Notes: generated by a model from the sequence alone, not told the origin. DNA of 64,000 nt from Candidatus Binatia bacterium (GCA_963422385.1 OY729432.1:818467-882466); one strand, 5' to 3'. Positions 2,573-61,890 are shown, numbered from the stretch's first letter. Program-made: numbers and translations.

Positions 2573-2584
2573 GCACGGAGGATG

Positions 2585-3588: not shown

Positions 3589-3746
3589 GGTCCCATTCCC
3601 TGCCGGCGCATGATCCGTTGGTAGCGGCTCTCGAACGCATCACGGCCACCCTCCATCACCCGGCAAACTTCGTCTCGAACCACCTGCTATTGTCACCCGG
3701 ATACTTGCATTCGATGTGTCCGTCGCAAAACTTTGTCGTCTAGTAC

Positions 3747-4591: not shown

Positions 4592-4696
4592 ACCATTGCA
4601 TGACGACCTTCAACACCCTTCGCCCAACTCTCCCGTTTCGTGTATCGTGGCTGTCGGATCGACGGAACGACCTCAAGGACAACCAGGAGGAATCCC

Positions 4697-10391: not shown

Positions 10392-11303
10392 CTATCCACC
10401 CGGCTTCACCTGGGCGGCGAAAACCTCGAGGGTGCGCAGGAAGCTCGGGTGCGACAGGGTCGCCATGTCCAGGACGACGTGCTCCACGCCAGCTTCCCCG
10501 AACTCGGCGATGCGGTCCCGGATCAACGAAGGGGTCCCGTTGAACGGCGTGTTGCCGGCCCGGCCCGCGTAAGGCCCCACCGGCTCCGAGACGCCTTCGA
10601 TGAGCAGGTTTGCGCGTAGCGACATGCTCGGGACCCGGGCGACCTGCCGCCGTTCACACAACCTGGCCATGTAGGCTCTTCCGTCCTTCATCTGTTCGGC
10701 GGTAAGCCCGATGGGGTGCCACCCATCGCCCAGCTCTACGGCCCGCCGCATGGCGCGCTTGCTTCTGCCGCCGATCCAGATCGGCGGTCCCGGCTGCTGC
10801 ACCGGTCTCGGCGAGGCATGGACCTTGTCGAAGTTGAAGTACCTGCCGGTGAAGCCCGTCTGATCGTGGGTCCACATCTCACGGATGATGCGCAGGTATT
10901 CGTCGCTTACGTCACCGCGATCCTCGAAGCGCGCCCCCAGGGCGTTGAACTCCCCTTCCATGTACCCGGCCGCGGCCCCGAAGATGACTCGCCCGCCGGA
11001 GAGGACGTCGATGCTCGCAAGCATCTTGGCCATGACGATGGGATTGCGGTAGGCCAGAACGATGATGCTGCTGCCAAGCTGCGCCCGGTGCGAAACCGCG
11101 GCCAGGAAGCTGAACACGGTGAACGCCTCGAGCATATGCTCGCGATAGATCAACTGCGCTTCACGGACGCCCTCCGGGATCACGATGTGGTCGGTGACCC
11201 AGATGGAATCGAATCCCAACCGCTCGATCTCGGTCACCGCCTCGACCAGCTCGGCGCGCCCGGTCTCCCGGCCGTAGTGCGTAAGACAGACCCCGAATTT
11301 CAT
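10392..11303 (-). CDS. LLM-class (luciferase-like) F420/flavin-dependent oxidoreductase
   Basis: MKFGVCLTHYG...WVTDH...GGRVIFGAAAGY are the typical LLM motifs. Confidence 0.8.
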   Translation of the reverse strand: MKFGVCLTHYGRETGRAELVEAVTEIERLGFDSIWVTDHIVIPEGVREAQLIYREHMLEAFTVFSFLAAVSHRAQLGSSIIVLAYRNPIVMAKMLASIDVLSGGRVIFGAAAGYMEGEFNALGARFEDRGDVSDEYLRIIREMWTHDQTGFTGRYFNFDKVHASPRPVQQPGPPIWIGGRSKRAMRRAVELGDGWHPIGLTAEQMKDGRAYMARLCERRQVARVPSMSLRANLLIEGVSEPVGPYAGRAGNTPFNGTPSLIRDRIAEFGEAGVEHVVLDMATLSHPSFLRTLEVFAAQVKPGG

Positions 11304-11342
11304 GGATTCCCCCGAAAGGTGGCTGTAGCGGCCGACGGTGCG

Positions 11343-11363
11343 GTGCGGGCGGGTTTGAAAGCC
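11343..11363. repeat. REP-like half-site
   Basis: GTGCGGGCGGGTTTGAAAGCC lies immediately 3' of gloA. Confidence 0.3.
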
Positions 11364-11367
11364 TCCT

Positions 11368-11754
11368 CTACTGTTTCCGCGTGGTCAGCTCGATCTTGTA
11401 GCCGTTGGGATCCTCGATGAAGGCGATGACCCCGCCGCCGTGCTTCATGGGACCCGCATCGCGAGTGATCTTGACTCCCTTCTTCCGCAGGTCGTCACAG
11501 GTGGCGTACACGTCGGGCACTCCGATGGCGATATGGCCGAAACCGTCGCCCACGTCGTACTCGTGGGTGTCCCAGTTGTAGGTCAGCTCGATGACGGCGT
11601 TGTCGTCCTCGGAGCCGTAACCCACGAAACAGTTGGTGAAGCGGCCGGACTCATAGTCCTTCTTCTTCAAGACATCCATCCCCAATCCGTCGCAATAGAA
11701 GTTGAGGCTTTCATCCAGGTGCTTGACCCGAATCATGGTGTGAACGATTCTCAT
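11368..11754 (-). CDS. gloA: Lactoylglutathione lyase (glyoxalase I)
   Basis: MRIVHTMIRVKHLDESLNFY...GHIAIGVPDVYATCDDLRKKG...IAFIEDPNGYKIEL. Confidence 0.85.
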   Translation of the reverse strand: MRIVHTMIRVKHLDESLNFYCDGLGMDVLKKKDYESGRFTNCFVGYGSEDDNAVIELTYNWDTHEYDVGDGFGHIAIGVPDVYATCDDLRKKGVKITRDAGPMKHGGGVIAFIEDPNGYKIELTTRKQ

Positions 11755-11767
11755 GAGATTCTCCTTC

Positions 11768-12388
11768 TCAGGCTTGCTCGCAAATTTGTGAGGGATCGGC
11801 CACCGCCTCCCGAATCTCCCAGCCCTTTGACCGCGTGAAGCTCACGTGGCTGAATTCACAGGGTTTCAGATGAAAGGCGCGATACTCGTTCAGCGGCGTC
11901 CGGCTGATGCGGCACAGTACGGAAAGGATGGGAAAACTGTGGCTGACCACGACGATGGTGTCCCCGTCGTCGTGACTCTCGACGATGCGGTTGAGCGCGG
12001 ACCGGACCCGGCGGTCCACGTCGAGCAACCGCTCTCCGCCCGGCAGGTCCACGGCCACGGGTTGCGAGCGCCACCGTTCGATCAATCCTCCGAACCTCTC
12101 ACGGACCTCGACGAACGTGAGGCCTTCCATCTCGCCATGGTCGAGCTCGCGCAGGTCGGGCTCGATCTTCACGGCGACGTCATGGGGTCCGCCGACAATC
12201 TCGGCGGTTTGCCGGGCTCGCTGGAGGTCGCTGGAATAGATCGCATCGATACGGCAGCGGCTCAGGTGCTCGGCGACCTCGTTGGCTTGCCGGTGGCCGA
12301 GCTCGTTGAGCTCGATGTCCGAGCTCCCTTGGCACCGGCCTTCCCGGTTCCAGCGGGTCTCGCCGTGACGCAACAGAAAAATCTGCAT
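11768..12388 (-). CDS. Histidine phosphatase family protein (phosphoglycerate-mutase-like)
   Basis: The RHGE catalytic motif is present (LLRHGETRWN). Confidence 0.8.
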   Translation of the reverse strand: MQIFLLRHGETRWNREGRCQGSSDIELNELGHRQANEVAEHLSRCRIDAIYSSDLQRARQTAEIVGGPHDVAVKIEPDLRELDHGEMEGLTFVEVRERFGGLIERWRSQPVAVDLPGGERLLDVDRRVRSALNRIVESHDDGDTIVVVSHSFPILSVLCRISRTPLNEYRAFHLKPCEFSHVSFTRSKGWEIREAVADPSQICEQA

Positions 12389-12403
12389 GGGAAGGGTGGC
12401 GCG

Positions 12404-14305
12404 TCAGATGAATTCCGGATGGATCTCTATCACGGCATTGGCCTTCAGGTTCTCGATCAACCTTCTCAACGCTCGCTGCCGCTTCTCTTCCCGTATCTGC
12501 TGCGTCAGGTCCTTCTTCTCCTTGGCCAGGCCGGCCGGATCGGCCTCTATGGTCTTCCTCAGCACCATGACGTAAACCGTGTCGTCCTGGAGGTAGGCGG
12601 TCTCCACCACCGGTTTCTCCTTCGTCACCGTGAGTCGTCCCAGTGGCAGCGGGAGAATCCCGATCTCGGGGATCTCGGCCTGCCCGCGCGGAAACAATCC
12701 GGTGTCTCCCACGTCGAGCCCATCGGACGCCGCCACCCTGGCCAGATCCGGCGTTTCCCTGAGCTCCGCAAGAAGTTCTTCGCCCTTCTTGCGGGCCATC
12801 TCTCGCGCCTTCCTTCGGGTGAGGGTCTCGGTGATCCCGTCCTTCACGTCCTCCAGGGGCGGGACCACGGGTTCCATCCGCTCGGCGCCCTCCATCAGGT
12901 ACAGCGCGTCGGGTGCCGAGACGATGGGCCCTACCTGACTCGGCTTGAGGGACAGGGCCACGCGGTAAAAGTCCTCCACGTCGCCGATCTCGTCCAGCGT
13001 ATCACCCGCGCTGAACAGTCTCGTTTCCGACAACGCGATCCCCCGTTTCGGGGCGACCTCGGCCAGCCGCGAACCGTCAAGCGCCCTTTCGCGGTCTTCC
13101 TCCGCCGCCCGCGCCGCCTTGGCCGCGCCGCGTTCACGCTTGAGCGCCTCGACGATCTCCTCCCTCACCTCATCGAGCTCCACGACCCCTTCCTCCTGTT
13201 TCTCCACCGCCTTCAACAGGTGCAGCCCGAGCGCGCTTTCGACGATCTCGCTCACCTCGCCTTGCTTCAGGACGAAAAGCGCCTCATCCAGCGCCGCCAC
13301 AAGCTGACCCCGGCCCACAAAGCCCATGTCGCCACCCTGCGCGGCGCTCTCGTCCCTGGAGTGCCGCTTGGCCAACTCGGCGAAGTCGGCGCCCTCACGG
13401 GCCTGCTTCAGAACGTCTTCCAATTGCTTGCGCGCCGCCGACTTGTCTTCCGGCGTCGTACCTTCGGCCGGCGCCGGGATGAAGATCTGGCTGAACTTCA
13501 CCGCATCCCGCCTGCGGAACCGGCGGTCACGGTAGACGTCGTAGTAGGCCCGCACTTCCTGGTCGGAGACCTCGATATCGGCCGCGAAGTCTTCCACGCG
13601 ATACGCCAGGTACCGTGCCTTGACCTTGAGCGGTTCCCGCAACAGCGCGCCGTTGCCGTCGTAGTAGGCCCTGATCTCCTCGTCCTCGACCTCGATGTCC
13701 TGGAAAAAATCCTCGGTCTTGAGACGGACGAAATTCAGCGCGATCTCCTGATTGTCCACCTGATAACGTTGCTCGACCTCGTCGGCCGTGACCGGGATGG
13801 AGTCCTGGATCAGATCCTGGAGTTTCCGGATCACCAGGGCCTCGCGCTGCCGGGCCTCGAACTCTCCCGGAGTCAGCCCCTGTCCGCGAAGCGCCTGCTC
13901 GTAGACATTCTTGTTGAACCGGCCCGCGGCCTGGAACGCCGGGTTGCGCGCGATTCCCCGCACCAACTCCTCATCGGTGACCTGAAGCCCCAGATCCTGA
14001 GCCGCCTGCAACAACAACCGTTGCTGGATCAGCTCCTCCAGCAACTGGCCCCTGAGATTGAGCGCCTCGATGTCGGCGGGAGAGAGCCGTCCTCCGGCCA
14101 GTTGCCGGTAGGTCTGCAGCATCCTGTAGTAATGGCCCTCGAGCTCGGTGTAGGTGATCTTGTCCCCGTTCACCTCCGCGATGGTGACCACCTGCTCCTG
14201 TCCTCCCTGGGGACCCACGCCGACCATGACGAACGCCAACACGCCGACCCCAAGCAAGAGCAGCACCAACCACGACCGTTTTCTCTTTCGTAGCGCGTCA
14301 AGCAT
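12404..14305 (-). CDS. ppiD: Periplasmic chaperone / peptidyl-prolyl isomerase (PpiD/SurA-like)
   Basis: N-terminal TM anchor, then SurA_N-like and parvulin PPIase domains (...DFAELAKRHSRDESAAQGGDMGFVGRGQLV...). Start taken at MLDALRKRK. Confidence 0.75.
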   Translation of the reverse strand: MLDALRKRKRSWLVLLLLGVGVLAFVMVGVGPQGGQEQVVTIAEVNGDKITYTELEGHYYRMLQTYRQLAGGRLSPADIEALNLRGQLLEELIQQRLLLQAAQDLGLQVTDEELVRGIARNPAFQAAGRFNKNVYEQALRGQGLTPGEFEARQREALVIRKLQDLIQDSIPVTADEVEQRYQVDNQEIALNFVRLKTEDFFQDIEVEDEEIRAYYDGNGALLREPLKVKARYLAYRVEDFAADIEVSDQEVRAYYDVYRDRRFRRRDAVKFSQIFIPAPAEGTTPEDKSAARKQLEDVLKQAREGADFAELAKRHSRDESAAQGGDMGFVGRGQLVAALDEALFVLKQGEVSEIVESALGLHLLKAVEKQEEGVVELDEVREEIVEALKRERGAAKAARAAEEDRERALDGSRLAEVAPKRGIALSETRLFSAGDTLDEIGDVEDFYRVALSLKPSQVGPIVSAPDALYLMEGAERMEPVVPPLEDVKDGITETLTRRKAREMARKKGEELLAELRETPDLARVAASDGLDVGDTGLFPRGQAEIPEIGILPLPLGRLTVTKEKPVVETAYLQDDTVYVMVLRKTIEADPAGLAKEKKDLTQQIREEKRQRALRRLIENLKANAVIEIHPEFI

Positions 14306-47440: not shown

Positions 47441-50188
47441 ATGAGCAAGATCGAGATTCAATTCGAGTTGAACGGCGAGACGCGCCGTGCCAACGTGACA
47501 CCCGAGCTGCTGCTGGCCGATTTCCTGCGCCACTCCCTGGGGCTCAAGGGCACCAAGACGAGCTGCGAGGTGGAGGTCTGCGGCGCCTGCACGGTGCTGC
47601 TGGACGGCCGTCCGGTGAGCGCCTGCGCCACCCTCACCCATGAGATCAACGGCCGCTCGCTGGCGACCATCGAAGGTCTCGGCAAGGCGGATGCGATGCA
47701 CGCGGTGCAGGAAGCGTTCTGGGAGGAAGGCGGCTTCGAGTGCGGCTTCTGCACCCCGGGCATGATCATGGCCGTCTGCGCCCTGCTCGACGAGAATCCG
47801 GAGCCCACGAAGGAGGACATCAAGACCGCCCTGGACGGCAATATCTGCCGTTGCACCGGCTACCTCTCCATCATCCGGTCGGTCAACCGGGCCGTCGAGT
47901 TGCTGCACGGGCGGGATGCAGCCCCCTCCCGGCCGGCGGAGGAGCGCCGCCTCGACGGCGCCGCCAAGGTCCGCGGCGAGCCGGTGTACACGGCCGACAT
48001 GACGCACCCGGGCATGCTCTACGGACGGATTCTGCGCAGCCCCCACGCCCACGCCCGGATCCTCGGCATCGACACGGCCGCGGCCGTGTCCCACCCCGGC
48101 GTGGTGGCGGTGCTTACCGCCGCCGACCTGCGGGACATCCCCGCCTACTACGGCCCGCTGGTGAAAGACATTCCCGTGCTGGCCACGGACAAGGTCCGGT
48201 ACGAGGGCGACCTCGTGGCGGCCGTGGCCGCCGAGACTCTGGAGGCGGCCACGGCCGCCACGGCGCTCATTCGCGTGGAGTACGAACCGCTCCCCGGACT
48301 CCTGACCATGGACGACGCACTCCATCCCGATGCCGCCCCGCTCCACGACTACGTGAGCGAGCACGGCACGAATTTTCCCGGATATCCCGGCGTCGACGAC
48401 GAGGCCAGGAAATACGCCAACGTGAGCTTCCACTACGAGCGCGGCAAGGGCAACGTCGACGACGGCTTCACCGCCTCGGAGCGAACCTTCGAGCACACCT
48501 TCGAGTTTCCCAAGATCGCCCACTACTCCATGGAGCCCCAACTCGCCGTGGCCGAGTGGCAGGAGGGCGGCTTCACGGTGTGGTCTTCCACCCAGCACCC
48601 GTTCATCATCCGCCAGGAGCTTGCGGAGATGTTCGGGGTGCCGCCGGAGCGGGTGCGGCTGGTCGTGCCGCTGGTGGGAGGCACCTACGGCAACAAGAAC
48701 CACACCAAGCTCGAGCCGCTGGCGGTGGCGCTGGCGCGCAAGGCCGGACGGCGGGTGTTCCTGCACCTGTCGCTGGAAGAAGAGTCCCGCACGGTGAGCA
48801 AGCCGGCCATGCGAATACGGCTCCGTACCGGTGTGGACCGCGACGGACTGCTGGTAGCGCGGGACTGCCTCGTGCACGTGGACGGCGGCGCCTACTCGGA
48901 CTCGGGTCCGCGAGTCACCCAGAAGGCGGGCTACCGGGCCCCCGGCCCCTACCGGATCCCGCACCTCCGCTCCCACTCGTACACCGTGTACACCAACACC
49001 GTGCCCGCCGGCGCGTTCCGCGGCATGGGCACGCCGCAGGTGGTGTGGGCCTACGAATCGCAGATGGACATGATCGCCCGGGAGATGGGTTGGGACCCGG
49101 TGGAGTTCCGGCTCAGGAATCTCCTCGACAAGGGCGAGGAGTTCGCGCCCGGTGAGACGCCCCTGGACTGCGACATCAAGGAGGGTCTCCTGCGCGCCGC
49201 CAGGGAAATCGGCTGGGGCGCGGAGGAACCGGGCCCCGATTGCGGCATCGGCTTCAGTTGCGGCGTCAAGGATGGCGGCGGCAACTACAAGATCTCATGC
49301 GCGCGGGTGGAGGTCGATGACGCCGGAGGGATCACTCTGCACGAGGGCACGGTGGAAATCGGCCAAGGGTCCCATACGGCCATGGCCCGCATCGCGGGGC
49401 ATGAGCTCGGGGTGCCGCCCACGGCCGTCCACGTGGCGCCCCTGGACACCGATTCGACGCCTTTCGACATGGGCACCTATGCCAGCAGCGCCACCACGGT
49501 CATGGGCCTGGCGGTGCAGAGGGCCGCCCAGGCCGTGCGCGGTCAGCTCATCGAGGCAGCCCGGTCACTGGGCAAGAGCCCCGACTCCGCCGCGACGCTC
49601 GCGGACGGCGAGGTGCGCCTGGGCGAGGTCGCGTTTCCTTTCTCGGCCCTGGTACGACACGTCAAAGGCGCCGGAGGCGTCCTTGTGGGAGAGGGCCGGC
49701 AGGAAAGCAGGCGGGACCCCAACGCGCCCCTCGGCGCCCGGGCGCCGTTCTGGGAAGTGGGATGGGGCGCCGCCAAGGTCCACGTGGACCGGGACACCGG
49801 GGATGTGCGGGTTCTCAAGTACGTCTCCATCGCGGACGCGGGCAAGGCCATCAATCCTCAGCAATGTCACACCCAGGAGCAGGGAGCCTTCCTGCAGGGG
49901 CTCGGACAGGCGCTGTTCGAGGAGACCATCTACGAGAACGGGCTGATGCTGACCCCCGACGCCCTGACCTACCGGCTGCCCAAAATTTCCGACCTGCCGG
50001 ACGACCTGGTCAATATCATCTTCGAGAACGGCAACGGCGCCGGCCCCTACGGCGCCAAGGGACTGGGAGAAAGCGGCATCCTCACCGTCCCGTCGGCCAT
50101 CGCCAACGCCGTGGCCCAAGCGGTGGACGTGCGCATCACCGACTTGCCGGTGACCGGCGAGAAGATCTGGCGCGCGCTGAAGAAGTGA
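47441..50188 (+). CDS. Single-chain aldehyde oxidoreductase (xanthine dehydrogenase family) with N-terminal 2x[2Fe-2S] fused to the Mo-pterin domains and no FAD domain (Desulfovibrio Mop-like)
   Basis: The N-terminal 155 aa have plant-type (CEVEVCGAC) and helical (CGFC...CRCTGY) 2Fe-2S motifs. The remainder is an XDH/CoxL-like Mo-binding large subunit. 915 aa. Confidence 0.8.
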   Translation: MSKIEIQFELNGETRRANVTPELLLADFLRHSLGLKGTKTSCEVEVCGACTVLLDGRPVSACATLTHEINGRSLATIEGLGKADAMHAVQEAFWEEGGFECGFCTPGMIMAVCALLDENPEPTKEDIKTALDGNICRCTGYLSIIRSVNRAVELLHGRDAAPSRPAEERRLDGAAKVRGEPVYTADMTHPGMLYGRILRSPHAHARILGIDTAAAVSHPGVVAVLTAADLRDIPAYYGPLVKDIPVLATDKVRYEGDLVAAVAAETLEAATAATALIRVEYEPLPGLLTMDDALHPDAAPLHDYVSEHGTNFPGYPGVDDEARKYANVSFHYERGKGNVDDGFTASERTFEHTFEFPKIAHYSMEPQLAVAEWQEGGFTVWSSTQHPFIIRQELAEMFGVPPERVRLVVPLVGGTYGNKNHTKLEPLAVALARKAGRRVFLHLSLEEESRTVSKPAMRIRLRTGVDRDGLLVARDCLVHVDGGAYSDSGPRVTQKAGYRAPGPYRIPHLRSHSYTVYTNTVPAGAFRGMGTPQVVWAYESQMDMIAREMGWDPVEFRLRNLLDKGEEFAPGETPLDCDIKEGLLRAAREIGWGAEEPGPDCGIGFSCGVKDGGGNYKISCARVEVDDAGGITLHEGTVEIGQGSHTAMARIAGHELGVPPTAVHVAPLDTDSTPFDMGTYASSATTVMGLAVQRAAQAVRGQLIEAARSLGKSPDSAATLADGEVRLGEVAFPFSALVRHVKGAGGVLVGEGRQESRRDPNAPLGARAPFWEVGWGAAKVHVDRDTGDVRVLKYVSIADAGKAINPQQCHTQEQGAFLQGLGQALFEETIYENGLMLTPDALTYRLPKISDLPDDLVNIIFENGNGAGPYGAKGLGESGILTVPSAIANAVAQAVDVRITDLPVTGEKIWRALKK

Positions 50189-50231: not shown

Positions 50232-50987
50232 GTGAACGAACCGGTGCGCAAGGACCGTTTCTACTTCAAGCTCTTCGACCGGCTCGACGCGCCCGGCTGC
50301 CCCATTTGCAGCATCGTGATCGAAGACAGCCGCGCCTATCTGGACAGCGTCCTCTACGAACGCGTTACCGACGTGCCTACGCGCGTGGGACTGCGGGACT
50401 CCTTCGGACTCTGCAACCTGCACACGTGGCAACTGCGCGACGTCCCGGCATCCAGCGCCCCGGACCTAGGCTTCGCCATCATCGCCAAGGACCTGCTGAG
50501 CCGGTTCCAGCGTTTGGCCGGAGAGCCCCCTGTTGTAGAATGGCGTACCCTGAAAGCCTGGCTTGGGCGCACACGATCACGCCTGCGCACCAGGCTCAAG
50601 AGGAGCCGCTGCCCCGCCTGCGTGCACGCCGCGCGTTCCGAGTCCATCCGCCTCCGGCAACTGCTGGACCTCTTCGGCGAAGTGGACTTCTTCGACGAGT
50701 ACCGGGCCGCCGACGGCATCTGCCTGCCCCATTTCCTCCTGGCCGAGGAAACCCACCCGGGCCACCCACACTCCGCGCGGCTCCGGGAACTCCAGCTCCT
50801 CAAGACGCGGGCCTTGCACGACACCCTCGACCAGTTCATCGAGAAAAACGACCACCGCGCGCGGGAGGAAATCACACCGGCCGAAGCCCGGGCCTGGACG
50901 GACGCCATGGAGCTCCTCCGCGGGAAGCGCAGCGTGTTCGACAGCGAGTTGCACCGCTCGTCGCCCCGACGTTGGAAGAGCCTCTGA
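50232..50987 (+). CDS. Cys/His-rich hypothetical protein with two CPxC...CxxH modules (possibly DUF6062-like)
   Basis: Two repeats each carry CPxC and a downstream CN/P-LH: GCPICSIV...LCNLHTWQL and RCPACVHA...ICLPHFLL. Lies 44 nt downstream of the Mop-like gene on the same strand. Confidence 0.4.
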   Translation: MNEPVRKDRFYFKLFDRLDAPGCPICSIVIEDSRAYLDSVLYERVTDVPTRVGLRDSFGLCNLHTWQLRDVPASSAPDLGFAIIAKDLLSRFQRLAGEPPVVEWRTLKAWLGRTRSRLRTRLKRSRCPACVHAARSESIRLRQLLDLFGEVDFFDEYRAADGICLPHFLLAEETHPGHPHSARLRELQLLKTRALHDTLDQFIEKNDHRAREEITPAEARAWTDAMELLRGKRSVFDSELHRSSPRRWKSL

Positions 50988-51411: not shown

Positions 51412-51717
51412 GGCCAGCCCCGAGACCGCGAGGGCCGCGTGTACGGGAGCGCCATCATAAGCTGCGGCAGGATGGGCCGCCGGTTGGCCAAGGAGATGAT
51501 CCGTCGCTCCTCTCCCTTGTGGCGTTCGCCCTTCAATCTGGCTTTACCCGGTGATTTCGGCTATAGGTAGCCCCCTTATGTCTCGGCATTCCGGCGTGCA
51601 GTGCCAGGTTGCAGTTGAGCAACGCCGTATCAAAGGGCACGACGCGCTGTCAACGAAGCATCTCGGCCTTGAATCACGCATCATGGAGCACGGGATTCGA
51701 CTTTCGCCCGGAGAGAG

Positions 51718-51939
51718 TTGCGCGTGATAAAGGTCGACCCCCACAAATGCGACGGCTGCGGCATCTGCGTCTACGACTGCGGCGCCGATGTCTTCCGCTT
51801 CACCAACAAGAAGGACAAGGTCTTTCCCTTCGGCAACAAGTACTGCGTCAACTGCTTCCTGTGCGAGCTCGTCTGCCCCGAAGACGCCATCGAGGTGGTG
51901 CTGCGGCCCAAGATGAAGCGCGCCGCCGCAAGCTCCTGA
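51718..51939 (+). CDS. 2x[4Fe-4S] ferredoxin
   Basis: CDGCGICVYDCG and CVNCFLCELVCP motifs. 73 aa. Confidence 0.75.
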   Translation: MRVIKVDPHKCDGCGICVYDCGADVFRFTNKKDKVFPFGNKYCVNCFLCELVCPEDAIEVVLRPKMKRAAASS

Positions 51940-51947
51940 GCGGACAC

Positions 51948-53624
51948 ATGACCGACTCCATCCCGACCACCGACTGCGACGTCCTCATCATCGGCGGCGG
52001 GTTGGCTGCCTGCATGGCGGCGCTGGAGGCGTCCAAGCGCAACATGGACGTGGTGCTGGTGGACAAGGGACGGCTCGGGCGAAGCGGCTCGAGCCCTACC
52101 TCCGGCGGGGTCCCGCAGGCAGCCTTCGGCCACGCCGACCCCCGCGACAGCAAGGAGATGCACTTCAAGGACACCATCGTCGGGGGCGACTTCATCCCGA
52201 ACCAGAAGATTGTCCGGGCCATCGTCAACGAGGTCACCGATCGGGTCATCGAGCTGGAGGAGATGGGGCTGCACTTCAAGAAGACGCCAGACGGCCGGAA
52301 ATTCCATCAGGAGAAACGTCTGGGCAGCTCCTACGCCCGCAGTTGCCCGCCGGTGGGCGGCAGCGTGGGGATGTTGGGCTCGCTGCGGAAAGAAGTATTC
52401 AACCGCGAGGTCCAGGTGCGCCAGTGGACCATGATCACGAAGCTACTGCGGCAGAACGGCCGGATCACCGGAGCCTTCGGCATCAACGTCCGGACCGGCG
52501 CTTACCAAGCATACCGCGCCCGGGCCGTGGTGCTGGCCGGGGGCAGCGCCATCGCCATCCAGAAGTACACCAGCGCCAACTTCCTGACCACGGGCGACGC
52601 CTACGTCGCGGCCTTCGAAATCGGCGCGCCCTTGGCCAACCTCGAGTTCCTGGAGTTCACGCTGATCCCGGCGCCCGGCGGCGAAGCCATCTCCATGGCC
52701 GGCCTGTCCCCTTTCACCAGCAAGGGCGGCCGCTTCTTCAACTCGCTGGGCGAACGGTTCCTGGAGCGGTACGATCCCGAGCGGCTGGAAGGCACGACCC
52801 GGGCCATCCTGGTGGGCGCCACCTACAAGGAAATGTTCGAGGGACGCGGCCCGGTCTACCTGGACCCGTCCTACATCCCGGACGAGAAGTGGGATGACGA
52901 AATCAGCTTCGAGTATTCCCCCAAGCTTGGCAAGGCCGGCGTCAACTGCCGCTCCGACCGGTTCGAGTGGGTGCCGGCGCTGCACACCTTCCTGGGCGGG
53001 CTTGACATCAACGAGCGGTGCGAGGTCCCAGGGGTGGAGGGTCTCTACGCGTCGGGTGAATCGGCCACCGGAACCCACGGCTCCAACCGGCTGTCCGGCA
53101 ACGCCATCGCCAGCGCCTTTGCGCTGGGCGCCCGGTCGGGCAAGTTCGCGGCCATCTACGGGGCGGACGCAGAGTTGGGCGAGGTGGACCCGGCGGAGAC
53201 CGCCGCGGAGGTCGCGAGGATCGAGGCCTTCAAGGGTGACGAAGGGCTGGATCCCACCGAGCTGCAACAGGAGATCAAGGAGATCGCGTGGGAGAGCACC
53301 GGCGTCGTGCGGAACGAGCGCGGGCTCACCACCGGACTGGAGCGCTTCCAGGAGATCCGCCGCGAAAAGGTCCCCCGGCTCAAGGCGGACAACATCCGCG
53401 CCCTCATCAAGTCCCTCGAATGCTCCAACCTTTCCTGGGTAGGCGAGATGGTCGCCCGCTGCGCCCTGGAACGCAAGGAATCCCGCGGCCAGCACACACG
53501 GGACGACTACCCGGAGAGGGACGACAAGAACTGCCTCAACTGGATCAAGGTGGAGAAGGACGGCGATCGGGTGAAGCCGATCATCAAGCCGATTCCGTTC
53601 GACGGGGCGGAGTTGAAACCCTGA
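51948..53624 (+). CDS. FAD-binding flavoprotein of the succinate dehydrogenase / fumarate reductase / AprA superfamily
   Basis: DVLIIGGGLAACMAA dinucleotide fold and the C-terminal RKESRGQHTRDDYPERDD signature. 558 aa. Starts 9 nt after the ferredoxin stop. Confidence 0.7.
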   Translation: MTDSIPTTDCDVLIIGGGLAACMAALEASKRNMDVVLVDKGRLGRSGSSPTSGGVPQAAFGHADPRDSKEMHFKDTIVGGDFIPNQKIVRAIVNEVTDRVIELEEMGLHFKKTPDGRKFHQEKRLGSSYARSCPPVGGSVGMLGSLRKEVFNREVQVRQWTMITKLLRQNGRITGAFGINVRTGAYQAYRARAVVLAGGSAIAIQKYTSANFLTTGDAYVAAFEIGAPLANLEFLEFTLIPAPGGEAISMAGLSPFTSKGGRFFNSLGERFLERYDPERLEGTTRAILVGATYKEMFEGRGPVYLDPSYIPDEKWDDEISFEYSPKLGKAGVNCRSDRFEWVPALHTFLGGLDINERCEVPGVEGLYASGESATGTHGSNRLSGNAIASAFALGARSGKFAAIYGADAELGEVDPAETAAEVARIEAFKGDEGLDPTELQQEIKEIAWESTGVVRNERGLTTGLERFQEIRREKVPRLKADNIRALIKSLECSNLSWVGEMVARCALERKESRGQHTRDDYPERDDKNCLNWIKVEKDGDRVKPIIKPIPFDGAELKP

Positions 53625-53672: not shown

Positions 53673-53962
53673 GTGTACGACTTCGAGTGGCATCCCGCCA
53701 AAGCCGCCAGCAACTTGCGCAAACACGGGCTTGATTTTAATCTCGCAGCCACGGTGTCCGAGGACCGACTCGCATCGACGGTGCGCGACGAAGACCACAG
53801 CGAGTCCGAGGACCGGTGGGTGACCGTAGGCGAATCCCGGAACACTGAGTTGTGGTTGTGTGTTACACTTCACGTCAAACCGACGACCGCACGACGGTGC
53901 GGATTATTTCGGCGCGACGGGCCACACCCAACGAACGACGCCAGTACGAGTCAGGCAAATGA
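53673..53962 (+). CDS. brnT: BrnT-family (DUF497) RNase toxin, reading frame interrupted by a shift in a GT repeat
   Basis: Frame 1 reads MYDFEWHPAKAASNLRKHGLDFNLAATVSEDRLASTVRDEDHSESEDRWVTVGESRNTE. At about 53846-53866 the BrnT-conserved end ...VVVVCYTSRQTDDRTTVRIISARRATPNERRQYESGK* continues in a different frame and stops at 53960-53962. The stop overlaps the next gene's ATG (ATGA). Confidence 0.6.
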
Positions 53963-56900
53963 AACGAGAGTACGACTTTTCCAAAGGTGAACGCGGCAAG
54001 TTCTACCGCCGGAACGCCAAGCTGAATATCCCACGCTCCACCGACAAGCCTGATTGGGCCGGGGCCGAAGGCCATCTTTGCGATTTCATGACCGCGGAGA
54101 CGGAAAAGACCCTCCGGGCCTACGGGGAACAACCGAGTCTGGTGACCGAGCATGCCAACCACGAACATGACACGGCCCACGGCGGCTATGCCCACCGGCA
54201 GCTCTTCGAGCTTGTCCAGAACAGCGCGGATGCTCTCGCCAACGCTCCCGATGGCAAAGGCATCCTGGTTCGCCTCACCGACGACTACCTCTATTGTGCC
54301 GATGACGGCAGAGCGATCGACGAGCCAGGTATCCAGGCGTTGATGTTCTCCCACATGTCGAGCAAACGAAACACCAGCGAGATCGGGCGGTTTGGGCTTG
54401 GCTTCAAGTCAGTGCTGGGAGTCACGAACGCCCCGGAGTTCTTCAGTCGGCCCGGTTCCTTTCGTTTCGACAAGAACCACGCGGCCAAGCGCATCGCCAA
54501 GGTCGCGCAAGCGGAACGCTACCCGGTGCTCCGGTTACCCATCCCCATCGATGCCCGTGAAGTGTCGGAGGACGACGAAGACCTTCGTGAACTCATGACC
54601 TGGGCAACTAACATCGTGCGGCTTCCGCTCAAACCGGGTGCTAGCGAGGACTTCGCTAAACAGGTTCAGGATTTCCCGCCAGAGTTCCTGCTGTTCGTCG
54701 ACCATGTCCGCTTTCTGAGCCTGGAACACAGGGAGCGAACGCGGGACTTCGTCCTCCAGAGATTAGACGGCGAGCTTCGACTCGACACGGACGAGGGATC
54801 TTCGCGCTGGAAATGCTTCAAGACCTACCACAGACTCTCTGTTGAAGCCCTCAAAGACCGGCGCTCGCTCGACGACAGCGGTGACGTGCCGATCTGGTGG
54901 GCGGCACCCCTGGACCGATTGGACTACCCAGGCTACTACTGGCACTTCTTCCCAACGAAGACGGCAAGTCTTCTGGCAGGTATTCTGAACGCACCCTGGA
55001 AGACCAACGAAGATCGCCAGAACCTGTTGCCGGGACCATACAACGACGAGTTGATCGATGTCGCGACGAGCATGGTGGCCAAGCGGTTGCCCGAGCTTGC
55101 CACTGACCAAGACCCCGCGTTGCACTTGGATGCCCTGCCGCGTCGGCATGAAGCCGGCGACACCGAGCACAGTGAGCGCCTCCGTGATCACTTGTATGAG
55201 AAACTGCGAAAAGGCCCCGTTGTCCCCGATCAGACCGGAACTTTGCGCAAAATCCAGGACATTTCCTATGCGCCCACAGCTCTGACTCAAGATCAAACGG
55301 GAGAAGCGTCGCTCAAGAAGTGGGCAGGCTTTGATCTGCGTCCAACGGATTGGCTTCACCACAGCACACTGACGCGTAATCGAATGGCCAAGGTCAACCA
55401 ACTTTTCGCCCAGGAACTTTTCGCCCAGGAACCTGCGTGGCAACAAGAGGCGCCTCGCGCATCCATAGCTAAGTGGTTGGAAGCTCTCATAGTAGAACGC
55501 GAGGGTCAAGCGACGATCATAGCCTCGAAGACGGCTCTTCAGGCGGCGGCAGCGATACCCGAGCGAAAGAGGACAGGAGAGCCGCTTGGCAACATTCTCC
55601 TGACGCAAAGCGACGACTGGTACGCGCCTGACCCGGAAAGCGTGTTCTTACCATCGTTCGATGATAGCGAAGGAGTTGACGACCGCTTGGTTCACAGGGC
55701 GCTGGTGTCTGATTCCGAGACTGCTGCGGCTCTGAACGTGCTGGGTATTAAGCACGTATCTCCCGAAGGCCGCTTTCGATCCCTTGCTAGGACATTGCTT
55801 ACTCGATGCACAAGCGAGCCGGACGAGACGCTGTGGGCCGACTTCTGGAGCGCGTCGCGTGCAGTGGAAACGGATCAGGCCTACATGATCGTCAAGAAAG
55901 TGACCGACCACGCATTGTCGATGACGACCGCCACATCCTGGCACGAGCAGGTCGTCATGACCATCAAGAAAGAGACCGACAAGGGACACGTCGATTGGAA
56001 CCCGTCGATTCATGCGCGTGCCCGGTCGGGCGATTGGCAACCCCTTCATTCGGTTCTGTTGCCTGGCGATATCGTGCCGAACGAAGGCGGCCGTGACCGT
56101 CGCGTCACAGTGGACACCGAGTTCCATGGTGCGGACTTGAAATTGCTCGACAGACTGGGGGCGACAGCCACGCCGAGGCAAGACCAGGATTTGTCGACCG
56201 ACCCTTGTTTCAAGTCGTTTTTGGTCGAATGCCGCCTTAAGTTCGTCGCCCGAGACCTTCCGAGGGACCCGCACTGGGGCAAACTGAATTTTGGTTCGAC
56301 AACAGGAAGTGGGCCGCTGCAAGTTCTGCCACTGCTCTCGAACGAAGGCAAGGCATGCTATACGGACGCCTTGTTGTCGCTGGAGACTTCCTTTGTCCGG
56401 TGGACAATGCGCCACGAAACCCAGAGCATCTACCCGCCACTCCCGTGTCAGAGTCCTGCCATCGCGTTGCTGCGCAAGCATGGCCGTATCCGTTGCGCTG
56501 GTGAATTCGTACCTTTAGCGGATGTGCTCGGTCCTCAACCGGCCAACCCTGCCGCACTGCAAGCTTTGCTGTCACACCGGATGGCGAACCGGATCAGGGA
56601 AGCCTTCGACCTTGCAGAACCGGTTGTGGAACCCGTCGGCGAAGAGGACTCGGTTCCTTTGACGGATGTGTGGCCCGGTTTGGCGCCGTACCTGACCGCG
56701 CACTCAAGGACATTCTCTCTCATCCGTTGCCAGCAACTTGCTGCTGGCGGCGGTACAAGTGGAGCCGAATGCATGCGGGTCGATGCCAGCATATACTTGG
56801 CTGGCACGGGTGATGAGGATTGCGACCTGCGGTTGGTTTCGCAGGAGCTCGGAATCGACCTGAATGACAACCAGCTTGAAGAGATCCTGCGATACGTTAC

Positions 56901-58521
56901 GCCGCAGGAAGTCGAGGCACAACGCGCGGCTATCCGGGAACTGACAACGGACGCCGAGAGGCTGTTCCACGCAGTAGGCGACGTCCGTCTGCGTTCATAT
57001 TTACCCGGATCGCTCTTGGCCGTGCTTGAGAGCGGCCGTGCGCCGCTGACTGGCGTTGAACTTGCGGAAGCGGCCATGGCCACATATCACACGGCGGCTC
57101 TCATGGAATATCGCCGGGCCTTGGATCACTTGGCCCCGCCCACGCGTTGGGCAGGGTCGCAGCCCGCGGTTGGCTTCGTCCAATCACTTGGATTCTCCGC
57201 GGAGTGGGCCGGACAACGGAGTTCACGCCATCCGCCGTTCCTGGAGGTAGAAGGCCCGTACTCGCTTCCGGAACTGCACGACTACCAGAAGTGCATCGTT
57301 GCCAGAGTGCGAGAGATGCTCTGCAATGGACGTATGGACGGTGGCGGGCGGCGCGGCATGATCAGTCTCCCAACCGGTTCGGGCAAGACACGCATCGCGG
57401 TGCAGGCCATCGTCGAGGCCATTTGCAGCGGTTTCACCGGCGGTGTCCTTTGGGTCGCAGACCGTGACGAATTGTGCGAACAGGCCGTGGAAGCATGGCG
57501 GCAGGTCTGGTCGAGCGTTGGCGCGGAAGGGAAGCGCCTGCGGGTTTCCAGGATGTGGGCCGGGCAGCCCCGACCTCTGCCGACAAGCGACCTCCACGTC
57601 ATTGTGGCGACGATACAGACGCTCAACGCCAAGCTGTCGAAGCAACCCGAAGATTACCGGTTCCTGGCTGACTTCAACTTGGTCGTTTTCGATGAGGCGC
57701 ATCGTTCCGTCGCGCCGACCTACACCTCTGTCATGCAAGAGATCGGACTGACCCGCTGGCAGCGAGGAAATGAACCCTTCCTGCTTGGCCTCACCGCGAC
57801 GCCTTACAGAGGGCACGATGAAGAGGAAACCGCCAGGCTGGTGCGTCGTTACGGCGGCAATCGCCTGGACGCCGGGGCGTTCGCCAACGACGAACCCTCA
57901 GAGGTCATTGGCGAGTTGCAGGAAATGAGCGTACTCGCGCACGCCGACCACCAGACCATCGAAGGCGGCGACTTCTCCCTGAGCCAGAATGAGTTGACGG
58001 AAATGCAGGCAATGCCCCATCCCGCATGGCTGCCACGCAGCATGGAGGACCGCATTGCCCGGGACGCGGACCGAACCAAACGCATTGTCGGTGCCTACAA
58101 GACCTTCGTTGGTAATGTTCACCGGGAGCAGTGGCCCACGCTGATCTTTGCCACTTCCGTGGAACATGCCAAGACGGTGGCAGCGCTGTTGAGCTCCGCA
58201 GGCGTCAGGTCCAGAGCCGTGAGTGGAGGGACAGAGACATCCGTTCGCCGAGACATTGTCGAGCGGTTTCGAGCGGGCCAGATCGACGTTCTCGTGAACT
58301 ACGGTGTATTCCGCGAAGGATTCGATGCGCCCAGGACACGGGTCATCATCGTGGCGCGGCCGGTCTACAGCCCGAACCTCTATTTCCAGATGATCGGCAG
58401 AGGGTTGCGGGGGCCGAAAAACGGAGGCAATGATCGCTGCCTCATCGTCAACGTGCGCGACAACATCGACAACTTCAACAAGGCGTTGGCCTTTTCCGAA
58501 CTGGATTGGCTCTGGGGGTAA
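53959..58521 (+). CDS. Large multidomain protein: BrnA-like N-terminal peptide, Hsp90/sacsin-type GHKL ATPase, about 900 aa unassigned, C-terminal SF2 DEAH helicase
   Basis: MKREYDFSKGERGKFY resembles the BrnA antitoxin N-terminus. Bergerat motifs follow: ELVQNSADA, YCADDGRAID and GRFGLGFKSV. The helicase motifs are I LPTGSGKT, II VFDEAH, III LTATP, V LVNYGVFREGFDAP and VI QMIGRGLRG. The ORF-track start is an upstream GTG at 53860. The ATG at 53959 is coupled to the brnT stop. Confidence 0.75.
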   Translation: MKREYDFSKGERGKFYRRNAKLNIPRSTDKPDWAGAEGHLCDFMTAETEKTLRAYGEQPSLVTEHANHEHDTAHGGYAHRQLFELVQNSADALANAPDGKGILVRLTDDYLYCADDGRAIDEPGIQALMFSHMSSKRNTSEIGRFGLGFKSVLGVTNAPEFFSRPGSFRFDKNHAAKRIAKVAQAERYPVLRLPIPIDAREVSEDDEDLRELMTWATNIVRLPLKPGASEDFAKQVQDFPPEFLLFVDHVRFLSLEHRERTRDFVLQRLDGELRLDTDEGSSRWKCFKTYHRLSVEALKDRRSLDDSGDVPIWWAAPLDRLDYPGYYWHFFPTKTASLLAGILNAPWKTNEDRQNLLPGPYNDELIDVATSMVAKRLPELATDQDPALHLDALPRRHEAGDTEHSERLRDHLYEKLRKGPVVPDQTGTLRKIQDISYAPTALTQDQTGEASLKKWAGFDLRPTDWLHHSTLTRNRMAKVNQLFAQELFAQEPAWQQEAPRASIAKWLEALIVEREGQATIIASKTALQAAAAIPERKRTGEPLGNILLTQSDDWYAPDPESVFLPSFDDSEGVDDRLVHRALVSDSETAAALNVLGIKHVSPEGRFRSLARTLLTRCTSEPDETLWADFWSASRAVETDQAYMIVKKVTDHALSMTTATSWHEQVVMTIKKETDKGHVDWNPSIHARARSGDWQPLHSVLLPGDIVPNEGGRDRRVTVDTEFHGADLKLLDRLGATATPRQDQDLSTDPCFKSFLVECRLKFVARDLPRDPHWGKLNFGSTTGSGPLQVLPLLSNEGKACYTDALLSLETSFVRWTMRHETQSIYPPLPCQSPAIALLRKHGRIRCAGEFVPLADVLGPQPANPAALQALLSHRMANRIREAFDLAEPVVEPVGEEDSVPLTDVWPGLAPYLTAHSRTFSLIRCQQLAAGGGTSGAECMRVDASIYLAGTGDEDCDLRLVSQELGIDLNDNQLEEILRYVTPQEVEAQRAAIRELTTDAERLFHAVGDVRLRSYLPGSLLAVLESGRAPLTGVELAEAAMATYHTAALMEYRRALDHLAPPTRWAGSQPAVGFVQSLGFSAEWAGQRSSRHPPFLEVEGPYSLPELHDYQKCIVARVREMLCNGRMDGGGRRGMISLPTGSGKTRIAVQAIVEAICSGFTGGVLWVADRDELCEQAVEAWRQVWSSVGAEGKRLRVSRMWAGQPRPLPTSDLHVIVATIQTLNAKLSKQPEDYRFLADFNLVVFDEAHRSVAPTYTSVMQEIGLTRWQRGNEPFLLGLTATPYRGHDEEETARLVRRYGGNRLDAGAFANDEPSEVIGELQEMSVLAHADHQTIEGGDFSLSQNELTEMQAMPHPAWLPRSMEDRIARDADRTKRIVGAYKTFVGNVHREQWPTLIFATSVEHAKTVAALLSSAGVRSRAVSGGTETSVRRDIVERFRAGQIDVLVNYGVFREGFDAPRTRVIIVARPVYSPNLYFQMIGRGLRGPKNGGNDRCLIVNVRDNIDNFNKALAFSELDWLWG

Positions 58522-58619: not shown

Positions 58620-59627
58620 TCACACCCGCGGCAGCACCGCCGCGCCGAACAGATCCATGGCCGCCAGGATGTCCTTCTGCTCCAACCCCGGAGTCCAGTC
58701 GAATCGCAGCAACAGCAGATCCGGCTTGAGGGATTCCTCGTAGGAGCGGATCTCCTCGATGCAGTCCACGGGGGAACCCAGGATGAAGCGATGGCGCGCC
58801 AGGCGGTCGAAGTCCCAGGTGAGTTCGTCGGGGTTGCTCATGGCATCGTCCTGGCCCCACCTGACGTAGACGTCGCGGTAGGGCTTGTCGAGGCAGGGGC
58901 GGGCCTTGGCCACGGCATCTTCCCGGGTGGGAGCCACGAAGCACTCCCGGACCATGACGACGGCGCCAGCGCCCGGCTTGCCGGTATCAGCCCACGCCTG
59001 GCGGAACAGCGCGATCTGGTCCCGCAGCTCCTCGATGGCCGAGTGGGGTGCCACCAGCCAGCCGTCGCTGATGCGGGCGGCGCGCCGGACTCCCTTGTCG
59101 CCGTTGGCCGCGATCCATACGGGTGGACGCGGCTGCTGTAGCGGTCGTGGCGCAATCGTTACGTCCTTCAACTCGAAGGCCTTGCCCGAGAACGAGACGT
59201 GCTCCTCCGTCCACAACCACTGGACGATCTCGACGCCCTCCACGAAACGGTGAAATCGCTGCTGCTTCGTCAGGTTGAAGGCATCCAGCTCCTGCTGCCG
59301 GTAACCGAGCCCGAAGGAGAAGAAGGAACGCCCTTCGTTCATGACGTCGATGGTGGCCAGCTCCTTGGCGATGATCACCGGGTCGTGGAGGCCGAGCAGC
59401 GTGGTGGCCGTGCCCACGCCGGCCCGCTTGGCTTCGGCGCAAAGCCGTCCCAGGAGCGGCACCTGATGAAGCCGCTGAAAGCCGGGGATGTTGTAGTGCT
59501 GGCCCATGGTGATGGCTTCGAAGCCGGCGTCGTCGGCGACCCGTGTCTGCTCCGCCAACGTGGGTAGAAGGCTCTCGGTGGGCTTGTCGATGGAAACCTG
59601 CGGATTGAACTGGATACCGAATTTCAT
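58620..59627 (-). CDS. LLM-class flavin/F420-dependent oxidoreductase
   Basis: MKFGIQFNPQ... luciferase-like TIM barrel. Starts at an internal Met of the 58620..60338 ORF, preceded by GGAG. Confidence 0.75.
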   Translation of the reverse strand: MKFGIQFNPQVSIDKPTESLLPTLAEQTRVADDAGFEAITMGQHYNIPGFQRLHQVPLLGRLCAEAKRAGVGTATTLLGLHDPVIIAKELATIDVMNEGRSFFSFGLGYRQQELDAFNLTKQQRFHRFVEGVEIVQWLWTEEHVSFSGKAFELKDVTIAPRPLQQPRPPVWIAANGDKGVRRAARISDGWLVAPHSAIEELRDQIALFRQAWADTGKPGAGAVVMVRECFVAPTREDAVAKARPCLDKPYRDVYVRWGQDDAMSNPDELTWDFDRLARHRFILGSPVDCIEEIRSYEESLKPDLLLLRFDWTPGLEQKDILAAMDLFGAAVLPRV

Positions 59628-61890
59628 GGTGTGCTCCTGTGTCTGTCGTGTCACGCGCTCCTCAACCCTTTCGGTTGAGGGCCCTCCAGACGCGCTCGGG
59701 CGTGAGGGGCAGCTCGCGGATCCCCACTCCCATGGCCCGAGCCAAGGCGTTGGCCACCGCCGGCGCCACCGCGACGATACCGGTTCGCCCATGCCCTTGG
59801 CGCCCCAAGGCCCCGGCCCATCGGCGTTTTCCATCAACGCGACCTCGAAACGGCGCGGCATGTCGGTGAAAGCCGGTACCCGGTAGTCGATGAGGTTGGG
59901 ATTGAGTGACTGGCCATTGTCGTAGAGCAGACTCTCACACAGGATGTGGCCCAGACCCATCATGGCCGCGTCCTCGGCCTGGAGCCGGTTGATGGCCTTG
60001 CCGACGTCGGCGACGATGGCGTAGTGTGGTACCCGTAGCTTGTTCGTCTCCTCGTCCACGATCACCGCAGCAGCCCCCATGCCGGTCTCCCAGAACACCG
60101 GGAAGTGCGAGGGAATCCTGCCGCCGGCACGCACGTAGCCACGGCCGATGCACTCGCCTCCGGGCATGGCGAAGTACGCCCGCACGACGGCGCCGTAGTC
60201 CATGCGTTGCCCGCCGGCCTTGGCCCGCCCGTCCTCCAGGGTCACGTTGCACGGGTCGCAGCCCATGACCTCGGCGGCGGCCTGCCGAACCTGCTCAAGG
60301 AGATCTTCGGCAGCGAACTTGACCGCCGTGCCCATCACCGTCGTGGAGCGGCTGGCGCCGGTGGAATGGCGTCACGTCGGTATCCGTGGCCCACATGACG
60401 ATTCGTTCCGGCGGAAGGCGAAGCCCCTGACCGCCACCTGACTCAGCACGGTCCGGGCCCCCTGCTCCACCTCGGTGCTGCCGGCCATGGGCACCACACT
60501 GCCGTCGCTCAGGAGACGCAGGATGGCGATGGATACGGGCATGGCCTCGGAGTCGGTGACGCCCACGGCGAGGCCCAGGTTGTCTCCCGGCGGACCCTGG
60601 TTCTCATCCCGGTCCACCATGAAGGCCAACTTTCGCAGGTCCATGTGCAGGTCCGCCCATGGGCTTGGCACCAAGCTTCAGGGGTTCGTTGCGGCGTAGC
60701 AGGTTCCGGAGGCGGAAAGCCAGCGGGTCGAGTTCCAGCCCCCGGCGGCGTCGTCCATGTGGGACTCCAGCGGGAAGATCGCATGGAGTCCGCCGATGGA
60801 TCGCATGGAGCCGGCAGGCGCGGTGTTGGTGTACACGGCGTAGACGCCGATGCGGTAATGAGGGATCCCGTAAGGGCCGTGGACCCGTGTGGCCACCCGC
60901 GGGCCGTTGTCGACGTAGACCACGGTGTCCAGGTGCACCTGCGCCTCACGCGCCACCACGGTACCGTCCCGTTGAACCCTGGTCCTCACGCGACAACGGG
61001 CCGAATGGCGCCGGATCGTCAGCATGGACTCGGACACGCTCTGGGCCAGACGGACCGGACGCCCGCCCGCGGTCCGGGCCAACGCCACCGCCAAGGGCTC
61101 GATCTTGAAATACGACTTGCCGCCGAAAGCGCCGCCGACGTAGGGCACCGTCACCCGCACGTTGGGCATCGGCACCCTGAACATCTGGGCGATCTCGGCG
61201 CGGACGAGGAACGGGTGAGCGGAGGAGGTCCAGAGCGAGATCTCGTCCCCCTCGAACCGGGCCACCGCGGTGTGAGGCTCGAGGGAATAGTGGCAGATCA
61301 TCGGGAACTCGAAGGTATCCTCGAACACCGCGTCGGCCTGCTGGAAGCCCGTGGCGACGTCGCCGGACTCGAGCTACTCGTGGTGACAGACGTTCCGCAG
61401 AGCTTCCTCCTCGACCGCGGGCAGATCATGGTACTACCCTGCCGAGGCATTGGCGTCATGCAGCACCGGAGCTTCCGGCGCCAATGCCTGATCCATGTCG
61501 GCCGCCATCGGAAGCTCTCGGTAACACACGCGCACCGAGGCCAGCGCATCTTCGGCGATATCGCCGCGCTCGGCCGCCACCGCCGCCACTGGCTCGCCGA
61601 CATAGCGTACCCGGTCCGTGGCAATGAGCGGCCGGTCCCGCAGACAGTGGCCGTAGTAGGGATCGATGTCCTTGACGGACTCACGGGTCAGAACGCCGTG
61701 AGCCCCTCGGCGTCGCGCACGTCGATGCTTTCGATCAAGGCGTGGGGAAACGGGCTCTGGAGCACCCGTCCCTCCAGTAGCCCCGGGAACTCCAGGTCGG
61801 CCGTGAACCGGGCCTTCCCGGTGACCTTCTCCACCCCTTCCGCGGCGGATGAATCGGCCGACGGTGGTGAAATGCGCCATCTGGCCGTAT
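59628..61890 (-). pseudogene. Xanthine-dehydrogenase-family Mo-binding subunit, a paralog of the Mop-like gene, disrupted
   Basis: Pieces collinear with the 47441 gene appear in ORFs 61688..62422 (N-terminus ...AEGVEKVTGKARF..., different frame), 61434..61880, 60678..61328 and the N-terminal third of 58620..60338. The last three share a frame but are separated by in-frame TAG and TGA codons. At least one frameshift lies near the N-terminus. Confidence 0.55.

Follow-up and report, generated by a model that had tools for sequence, protein, structure and literature searches.

A family-specific core between the GHKL ATPase and SF2 helicase modules of a large protein from a Candidatus Binatia bacterium

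A 64,000-nucleotide stretch of a Candidatus Binatia bacterium genome (GCA_963422385.1 OY729432.1:818467-882466; here called the window) encodes on its forward strand a very large protein (53959..58521) in which a sacsin-type GHKL ATPase and a superfamily 2 (SF2) helicase are joined through a central core that has no relative among solved structures. The original prediction held that a region of roughly 900 amino acids (aa) between the two enzymatic modules contains no recognisable domain; this stands for about 650 residues (aa ~486-1135), the truly unassigned stretch, while the first ~285 residues belong to a module that is known from the Tiamat defence protein TmtA. The core is tentatively read here, with a confidence somewhat short of an even chance, as a non-catalytic part of a large, uncharacterised family of single-chain GHKL-SF2 helicase proteins, related at their N-termini to TmtA and acting in conflict with phages or other mobile elements.

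The central core and its flanking modules

The gene lies within a forward-strand open reading frame (53860..58521) that contains the whole interval in question (54460-57260; aa 201-1134) and holds an uninterrupted 4.56-kb frame. Although the frame as listed extends upstream to a GTG at 53860, from which residues are numbered throughout, homologues begin at codon 34, making the ATG at 53959 (M34) the true start and giving a protein of 1,520 aa. An exact database look-up of this protein returned no record, and scans for promoter and terminator consensus sequences at both gene boundaries found none.

Both flanking modules named in the original prediction were confirmed by profile. The sacsin-type GHKL (Bergerat) ATPase domain (aa ~75-215; 54082..54504) is matched by the NCBIfam model P_loop_sacsin ("sacsin N-terminal ATP-binding-like") at aa 113-194 with 62 bits against a cutoff of 50, and by a weak Pfam SACS/HATPase_c signal at aa 114-206. 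The motifs that define the GHKL superfamily are all intact (E117/N121/D124, D149-G150 and G176-x2-G179-x-G181). The ResIII/RadD-like SF2 helicase (aa 1138-1553; 57271..58518) is matched by Pfam ResIII (aa 1138-1317; E 1.5e-26), Helicase_C (aa 1422-1517; E 3.7e-14) and also DEAD, and displays every hallmark of its superfamily: the Q motif (H1140/Q1143), the Walker A motif PTGSGKT (1171-1177), DEAH (1278-1281), motif III as TAT (1312-1314) and the motif VI arginines in QMIGRGLRG (1510-1518), each 94-100% conserved. Conservation was computed over 95 full-length family members sharing at most ~50% identity; the GHKL and helicase catalytic motifs together reach 97-100%, and the core is less conserved, with a mean column identity of 0.3-0.48. 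By NCBIfam and PDB sequence search, the helicase is nearest to RadD, Hef and the motors of type I and type IV restriction enzymes. As neither enzymatic end is damaged and both are strongly conserved, the protein is predicted to be, most probably, an active ATP-driven machine.

Eight PADLOC models of TmtA match aa 75-485, some extending to 547-621, with E values from 1.9e-53 to 1e-13, and each match covers only the first ~27-30% of the TmtA profile. Because of these matches, the first ~285 aa of the supposedly featureless stretch (aa 201-485) can be assigned to a known sacsin/TmtA-type GHKL module. Beyond the ATPase domain proper, the TmtA-homologous extension (aa ~216-485; 54505..55314) is a probable transducer-like domain that would complete the ATPase module. 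It carries the motif FFPT..GILNAPWKTNEDRQNLL, in which N377, W380, D385, R386 and N395 are near-invariant, R386 being a candidate phosphate-sensing residue. A low-confidence model of this part aligns over 200-248 residues with structures containing a transducer or middle domain, versus 122-139 for GHKL-only structures, which suggests that a GHKL transducer may be present within aa 201-485. A profile of aa 195-560 searched against Protein Data Bank (PDB) sequences did not recover sacsin; it matched only a designed repeat protein (E 0.045) and, by chance, an aldehyde oxidase subunit.

The remaining residues form the family-specific central core (aa 486-1135; 55315..57264). Pfam searches of the whole protein and of 300-aa tiles returned nothing credible between the GHKL and helicase modules, the tile matches to DUF772, kleA_kleC and GumK_N (E~0.1) being noise, and Pfam scans of 20 and of 11 diverse family members likewise found no domain in the central region. 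NCBIfam had no match to the central region in tiles, and PADLOC searches of tiles of aa 431-1140 gave neither a TmtA model nor any other credible match. No relative of the central region was found among PDB sequences by phmmer or by family profiles, and a profile of aa 556-1137 gave zero matches there. The core is nonetheless folded with confidence in an AlphaFold2 (AF2) model of aa 551-1135 built from 30 sequences, with a mean predicted local distance difference test (pLDDT) score of 87.4, a predicted template modelling score of 0.69 and 362 residues at a pLDDT of at least 90. A Foldseek search with this model against 350,542 PDB chains returned a best E value of 3.8, and hence no significant structural relative. 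Since the core is folded, conserved and without relatives by sequence or solved structure outside the family, new domains are plausible in aa ~486-1135. The suggestion that novel sensor or nuclease domains might be hidden here is thus supported as regards novelty. It is not supported as regards a nuclease, as the central region showed no known nuclease fold or signature (PD-(D/E)xK, HNH, PLD or GIY-YIG) by profile, fold or motif.

The anatomy of the core can be described from the secondary structure of the AF2 model and from conservation in the family. A module of ~50 residues, composed of a β-hairpin and a helix ending in an LG[IVA] motif, is present twice, a repeat supported by hhalign comparison of family sub-alignments (probability 90.5%, E 1.4e-6, 49 columns). 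The helix of copy 1 (aa 580-632; 55597..55755) ends in LGI, while copy 2 (aa 719-770; 56014..56169) bears the motif VDTxFHxxDxxLLxxLG, including D752 (93%) and H756 (99%); a weaker third copy is possible at aa 437-471. Between the two copies lies a hypervariable, indel-rich insert (aa 664-723; 55849..56028) with a mean column identity of 0.14-0.20, 37-57% gaps and pLDDT blocks of 43-51, falling below 50 for aa ~695-713. An α/β domain follows (aa ~773-985; 56176..56814), where H852 (85%), T879 (86%; Cys in the window protein) and C957 (96%) are presented at the ends of predicted β-strands and D936 is kept as Asp or Glu in 93% of members. Many members, apparently actinobacterial (P0076, P0077 and P0088 among them), contain an insert of ~130-150 aa in this domain, at the equivalent of window aa ~905-930. 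The insert has a second strand motif, LRCRxG, resembling that around C957. The core closes with a helical bundle and linker (aa ~986-1135; 56815..57264), the latter a conserved PPxxWAGSxxAxxFVxxLGF..WAG segment leading into the helicase Q motif.

Across 600 core residues, D752, H756, H852 and C957 are the only polar positions kept at 85% or above, with D936 and R1034 kept by residue class. These few near-invariant positions make up no known catalytic motif, nuclease or other. They could nevertheless form an active or metal site, in which case the core would be more than a scaffold. The main rival explanation is built on this: that a novel effector, either a nuclease or a hydrolase of another kind, is concealed in the core around D752, H756, H852 and C957 with D936, acting in the many members that lack an adjacent BrnT toxin gene (described below). 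The location of H852, T879 and C957 at strand ends of an α/β domain is typical of active sites, a catalytic or metal centre of H756, H852 and C957 would explain how toxin-less members act, and most members do lack an adjacent toxin; if these are defence systems, they would require an effector within the large protein. For Tiamat, a PD-(D/E)xK domain has been reported C-terminal to the GHKL region (bioRxiv 10.1101/2024.10.26.620412). However, the counterpart of D752 in repeat copy 1 is H612, so that D752 may be a structural residue of the repeat, and the recurrence of the "RC" strand motif in the insert of other members suggests a structural cysteine. An effector enzyme within the core is considered unlikely on this balance.

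The reading of the core as a coupling or sensing scaffold rather than an effector draws on an analogy, in that other GHKL proteins need a constitutive dimerisation or client-binding region beyond the transducer, and it also accords with the restriction-like GHKL-S5 and SF2 helicase systems compared below. In such a role, aa 486-1135 would couple the ATP-driven GHKL clamp physically to the helicase motor, supply a constitutive oligomerisation surface or one that binds nucleic acid or another trigger, and carry a variable recognition surface.

The upstream BrnT gene and the N-terminal peptide

The most likely effector in this lineage is encoded outside the central region, by the gene directly upstream. 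This gene (53673..53962, forward strand), recovered by two-frame translation, encodes a BrnT-family RNase toxin whose frameshift-corrected product matches Pfam BrnT_toxin over the full profile (E 8.8e-25, 87 bits), and its TGA and the start codon of the large gene share bases in the sequence ATGA (53959-53962). Its reading frame is not intact in the window owing to a 1-nucleotide (nt) deletion near 53840-53852 that moves translation out of frame 0 and into frame 2; the missing base was located by aligning the DNA with the intact copy at locus L016, which reads CCCGGC where the window has CCCGG.

The large protein itself begins with a short peptide, MKREYDFSKGERGKFYRRNAKLNIP (aa 34-58; 53959..54033), whose motif, M-x-x-EYDFS-x3-RG+F, also starts the protein at loci L001, L002, L008, L015 and L016. 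By tblastn, a BrnT gene is directly upstream at all six of these peptide-bearing loci, mostly with a 4-nt overlap, and at none of five independent loci that lack the peptide (L004-L006, counted once, L007, L009, L017 and L018). The BrnT locus is fully intact at L008, a Pseudomonadales metagenome-assembled genome, and both the overlap and the peptide are kept across orthologues of 45-80% identity. Among 100 proteins longer than 1,400 aa from the exhaustive family search described below, none carries the motif at its N-terminus. The best match to the peptide in 7.3 Gb of plasmid sequence is to the first 29 residues of a 66-aa Leptospira protein encoded directly after a gene annotated as "BrnT family toxin". 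A further match, inside an Abditibacteriota "PcrA" gene, is internal and was judged to be chance.

These arrangements permit a mechanism to be proposed for the subclade. The N-terminal peptide is proposed to be a toxin-binding, antitoxin-like segment that would keep the BrnT RNase, the putative effector, inactive; sensing by the GHKL-core-helicase machine would then free BrnT and lead to abortive infection. The large protein would accordingly be, in the broad sense, probably an anti-phage or toxin-control system. The domain map, the homologies, the lack of relatives, the repeat and the BrnT linkage are observations; the defence role, the scaffold or sensor function and the sequestration and release of the toxin are inferred from them. 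A bolder extension, which we regard as rather doubtful, is that a core of previously unseen folds is where a widespread, so far nameless GHKL-SF2 helicase immune family senses its trigger and couples its parts. The sensor of the BrnT-linked clade would have absorbed the antitoxin, leaving a peptide of ~25 aa to restrain the RNase until foreign nucleic acid is detected, and in the toxin-less clades a catalytic or metal centre of H756, H852 and C957 would serve as the effector.

Besides the conserved polar residues of the core, several observations weigh against the scaffold reading and the toxin linkage attached to it. The transducer assignment depends on a low-confidence model (pLDDT 58). Alone, the Leptospira match to the peptide has an E value of ~3 and is not significant, Pfam finds no BrnA (DUF4415/RHH) homology in the N-terminal 40-77 aa, and the idea that the peptide is BrnA by homology was rejected when a hidden Markov model (HMM) of four BrnA proteins gave -0.7 to 2.3 bits, compared with 6.8 bits for the top shuffled sequences. 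For these reasons the peptide is named BrnT-partner-like by context. The peptide-bearing loci make up one subclade, and one event in evolution may therefore account for the co-occurrence with BrnT. Metabolic genes, and not defence islands, form the surroundings in the window and at L002 and L008. Finally, with its BrnT gene frameshifted, the system may be inactive in this genome, or the missing base may be an assembly error.

Taken further, the frameshift would point to a decaying pseudogene cluster or to assembly artefacts, with the central region having no current function in this genome. In keeping with decay, a reverse-strand frame downstream (58620-60338) runs from the C-terminal part of a molybdopterin-domain protein into a luciferase-like monooxygenase, and the homologues in databases are mostly frameshifted fragments that come from metagenomes assembled from long reads. 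This explanation is nonetheless very improbable: the 4.56-kb frame of the large gene is unbroken, all family-invariant catalytic motifs are intact in the window protein, the core model is confident, intact full-length orthologues exist, and long-read assemblies commonly gain or lose one base in error at short runs of C and G such as this.

The family and its relation to known systems

An exhaustive HMM search, with a profile that also took in helicase columns, recovered 3,190 representatives of 50%-identity clusters at E<1e-3, of which 614 reached E<1e-30, and almost all of the best 150 matches are proteins of 1,450-1,600 aa with the same GHKL-core-helicase layout. Word-indexed searches found 36-61 clusters, all of them fragments of this architecture, many ending in frameshift junk typical of long-read metagenome assemblies. 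Only two names were encountered among members, "DEAD/DEAH box helicase" in Geodermatophilus and [quoted passage not shown] in Sinomonas, and a literature search gave no description of a GHKL-core-SF2 helicase architecture. The N- and C-terminal extensions of longer members hold no Pfam domain. Intact orthologues of 1,472 aa are present at L008 and L009, and a single-sequence scan of ~185,000 species-representative genomes, which reaches close relatives only, matched two.

The core was seen solely within this architecture and never joined to anything else. One 589-aa protein on a 4.05-Mb contig (P0030), in which the N-terminus of an LD-carboxypeptidase (Peptidase_S66) is joined to core aa 845-1176, is probably a frameshift or rearrangement chimera. 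At the locus of P0018, represented by three independent assemblies (L004-L006), the protein is split at ~aa 1089. Its GHKL-core part (1,019 aa) and its helicase (~390 aa) are encoded ~230 nt apart, and as the split falls between core and helicase, the core goes with the GHKL half. In this form the system occurs naturally as two genes. Searches of 72,556 plasmids and of 50,697 phage genomes gave no core homologue, and the family is therefore chromosomal.

This chromosomal distribution is one of the features that would suit a housekeeping factor in DNA repair or remodelling, comprised of a RadD-like helicase and a chaperone- or MutL-like GHKL ATPase, with the core as a lineage-specific DNA-binding or dimerisation region and BrnT as an unrelated toxin-antitoxin remnant. 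The closest matches to the helicase are repair helicases of the RadD, Hef and XPB type, and several loci lie among metabolic or housekeeping genes. Yet the N-terminal third is specifically related to a defence protein, the BrnT-large gene overlap is conserved together with a dedicated peptide, GC content dips to 0.59-0.61 across the large gene compared with ~0.64-0.69 in its flanks, restriction or defence genes neighbour other loci, and just two of the ~185,000 genomes in that limited scan were matched. A housekeeping role is thus quite improbable, though less so than decay.

The role in conflict preferred here places the window protein within a GHKL-plus-helicase theme that is known from bacterial immunity, here with an unusual toxin linkage. 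Pairings of GHKL ATPases with helicases recur in MORC-like systems and Tiamat, and how such systems sense invaders is poorly understood. Tiamat is among the closest known systems: the N-terminal ~410-470 residues of the window protein, comprising the sacsin-type GHKL domain and the domain that follows it, are clearly homologous to TmtA (PDLC03964-03972), and both proteins are very large (1,300-1,800 aa). The C-terminal two-thirds of the TmtA profile remain unmatched, however, and the nuclease reported for TmtA was not found in the window protein, which instead has its own 650-aa core, an SF2 helicase and, in its clade, a BrnT partner. As the C-terminal two-thirds differ, the window protein is not a member of Tiamat. 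Likeness to human sacsin (SRR/SR1; PDB 5v44) is confined to the GHKL part; sacsin is eukaryotic and chaperone-like, has Ubl, DnaJ and HEPN domains and lacks a helicase.

Restriction-like systems that associate prokaryotic MORC and paraMORC GHKL-S5 ATPases with an SF2 helicase have been described (Iyer, Abhiman & Aravind 2008, PMC2292703). These share the theme of a GHKL (+S5) ATPase and an SF2 DNA helicase in a conflict system, but their partners are encoded by separate genes, usually along with a restriction-fold or HKD nuclease, whereas the window protein fuses a sacsin/TmtA-type GHKL module to the helicase through the core and has no detected nuclease. Resemblance to RadD (NCBIfam E 6e-31; PDB 6jde, E 4e-19), to the likewise close Hef and to the type IV enzyme SauUSI (7clg; PADLOC mREase_IV) is limited to the motor in the C-terminal 415 aa, as the zinc finger, PLD nuclease and DUF3427 found in those proteins are absent.

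The toxin linkage has parallels of its own. As in plasmid brnTA pairs, the toxin comes first and the second gene overlaps its end; there, the partner is a ribbon-helix-helix (RHH) antitoxin of ~100 aa, compared with a 1,520-aa ATPase-helicase here, which shares at most its ~25-aa N-terminal motif with some small BrnT partners. In RtcR-associated CoCoNuT type IV restriction systems, a BrnT-like RNase of the RelE family is encoded directly upstream and in the same direction (Bell et al. 2024, PMC11090510). A BrnT-like gene thus precedes a large NTPase-based system in both cases, but the McrBC GTPase/HEPN machinery of CoCoNuTs is unrelated to the GHKL and SF2 helicase modules, and no fusion to an antitoxin-like peptide has been described for them.

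The family fuses two motors through a large, confidently folded core without known relatives, and its hundreds of 50%-identity clusters carry generic annotation. The BrnT-linked subclade offers a testable handle on it, in that its toxin is defined, its candidate toxin-binding peptide is short and it has two ATPase switches, and would make a tractable model for the control of a toxin-antitoxin-type effector by a large sensor, as well as a mechanistic comparison for Tiamat-like proteins.

Neighbouring genes at the family loci

Neighbourhoods vary considerably across the family. L004 adjoins HsdM, Uma2 and a PIN/Phd toxin-antitoxin pair, L018 adjoins GmrSD_N and AAA_15/21/DUF3696, and an Eco57I-like gene is near L001. 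The setting of L009, from a Candidatus Palauibacter, looks like a defence island: the large gene is flanked by an overlapping three-gene operon (1-6104) and by a gene for a UvrD-like helicase (10933-12612). The operon encodes DUF6361, a protein whose weak PLD-like match (E 3e-4) falls short of the Pfam cutoff, and a product longer than 986 aa. At L017, whose member has neither peptide nor BrnT, a gene resembling S-adenosylmethionine-dependent methyltransferases (678-1583) shares 4 nt with the beginning of the large gene and may stand in for BrnT as its partner. At L007, an 84-aa product resembling by eye a HicB/UPF0150 antitoxin is encoded (4990-5244) ~750 nt upstream of the peptide-less P0006.

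In the window, the downstream reverse-strand frame (58620-60338) encodes the C-terminal 160 aa of a molybdopterin-binding (MoCoBD_2) protein followed in frame by a complete luciferase-like monooxygenase, a fusion that may reflect a lost stop or a frameshift and be another hint of assembly indel errors. The setting upstream is metabolic, with a DUF6062-family gene (50232-50987) between a xanthine-dehydrogenase-like gene (47441-50188) and a gene for a flavin adenine dinucleotide-dependent oxidoreductase (51609-53624).

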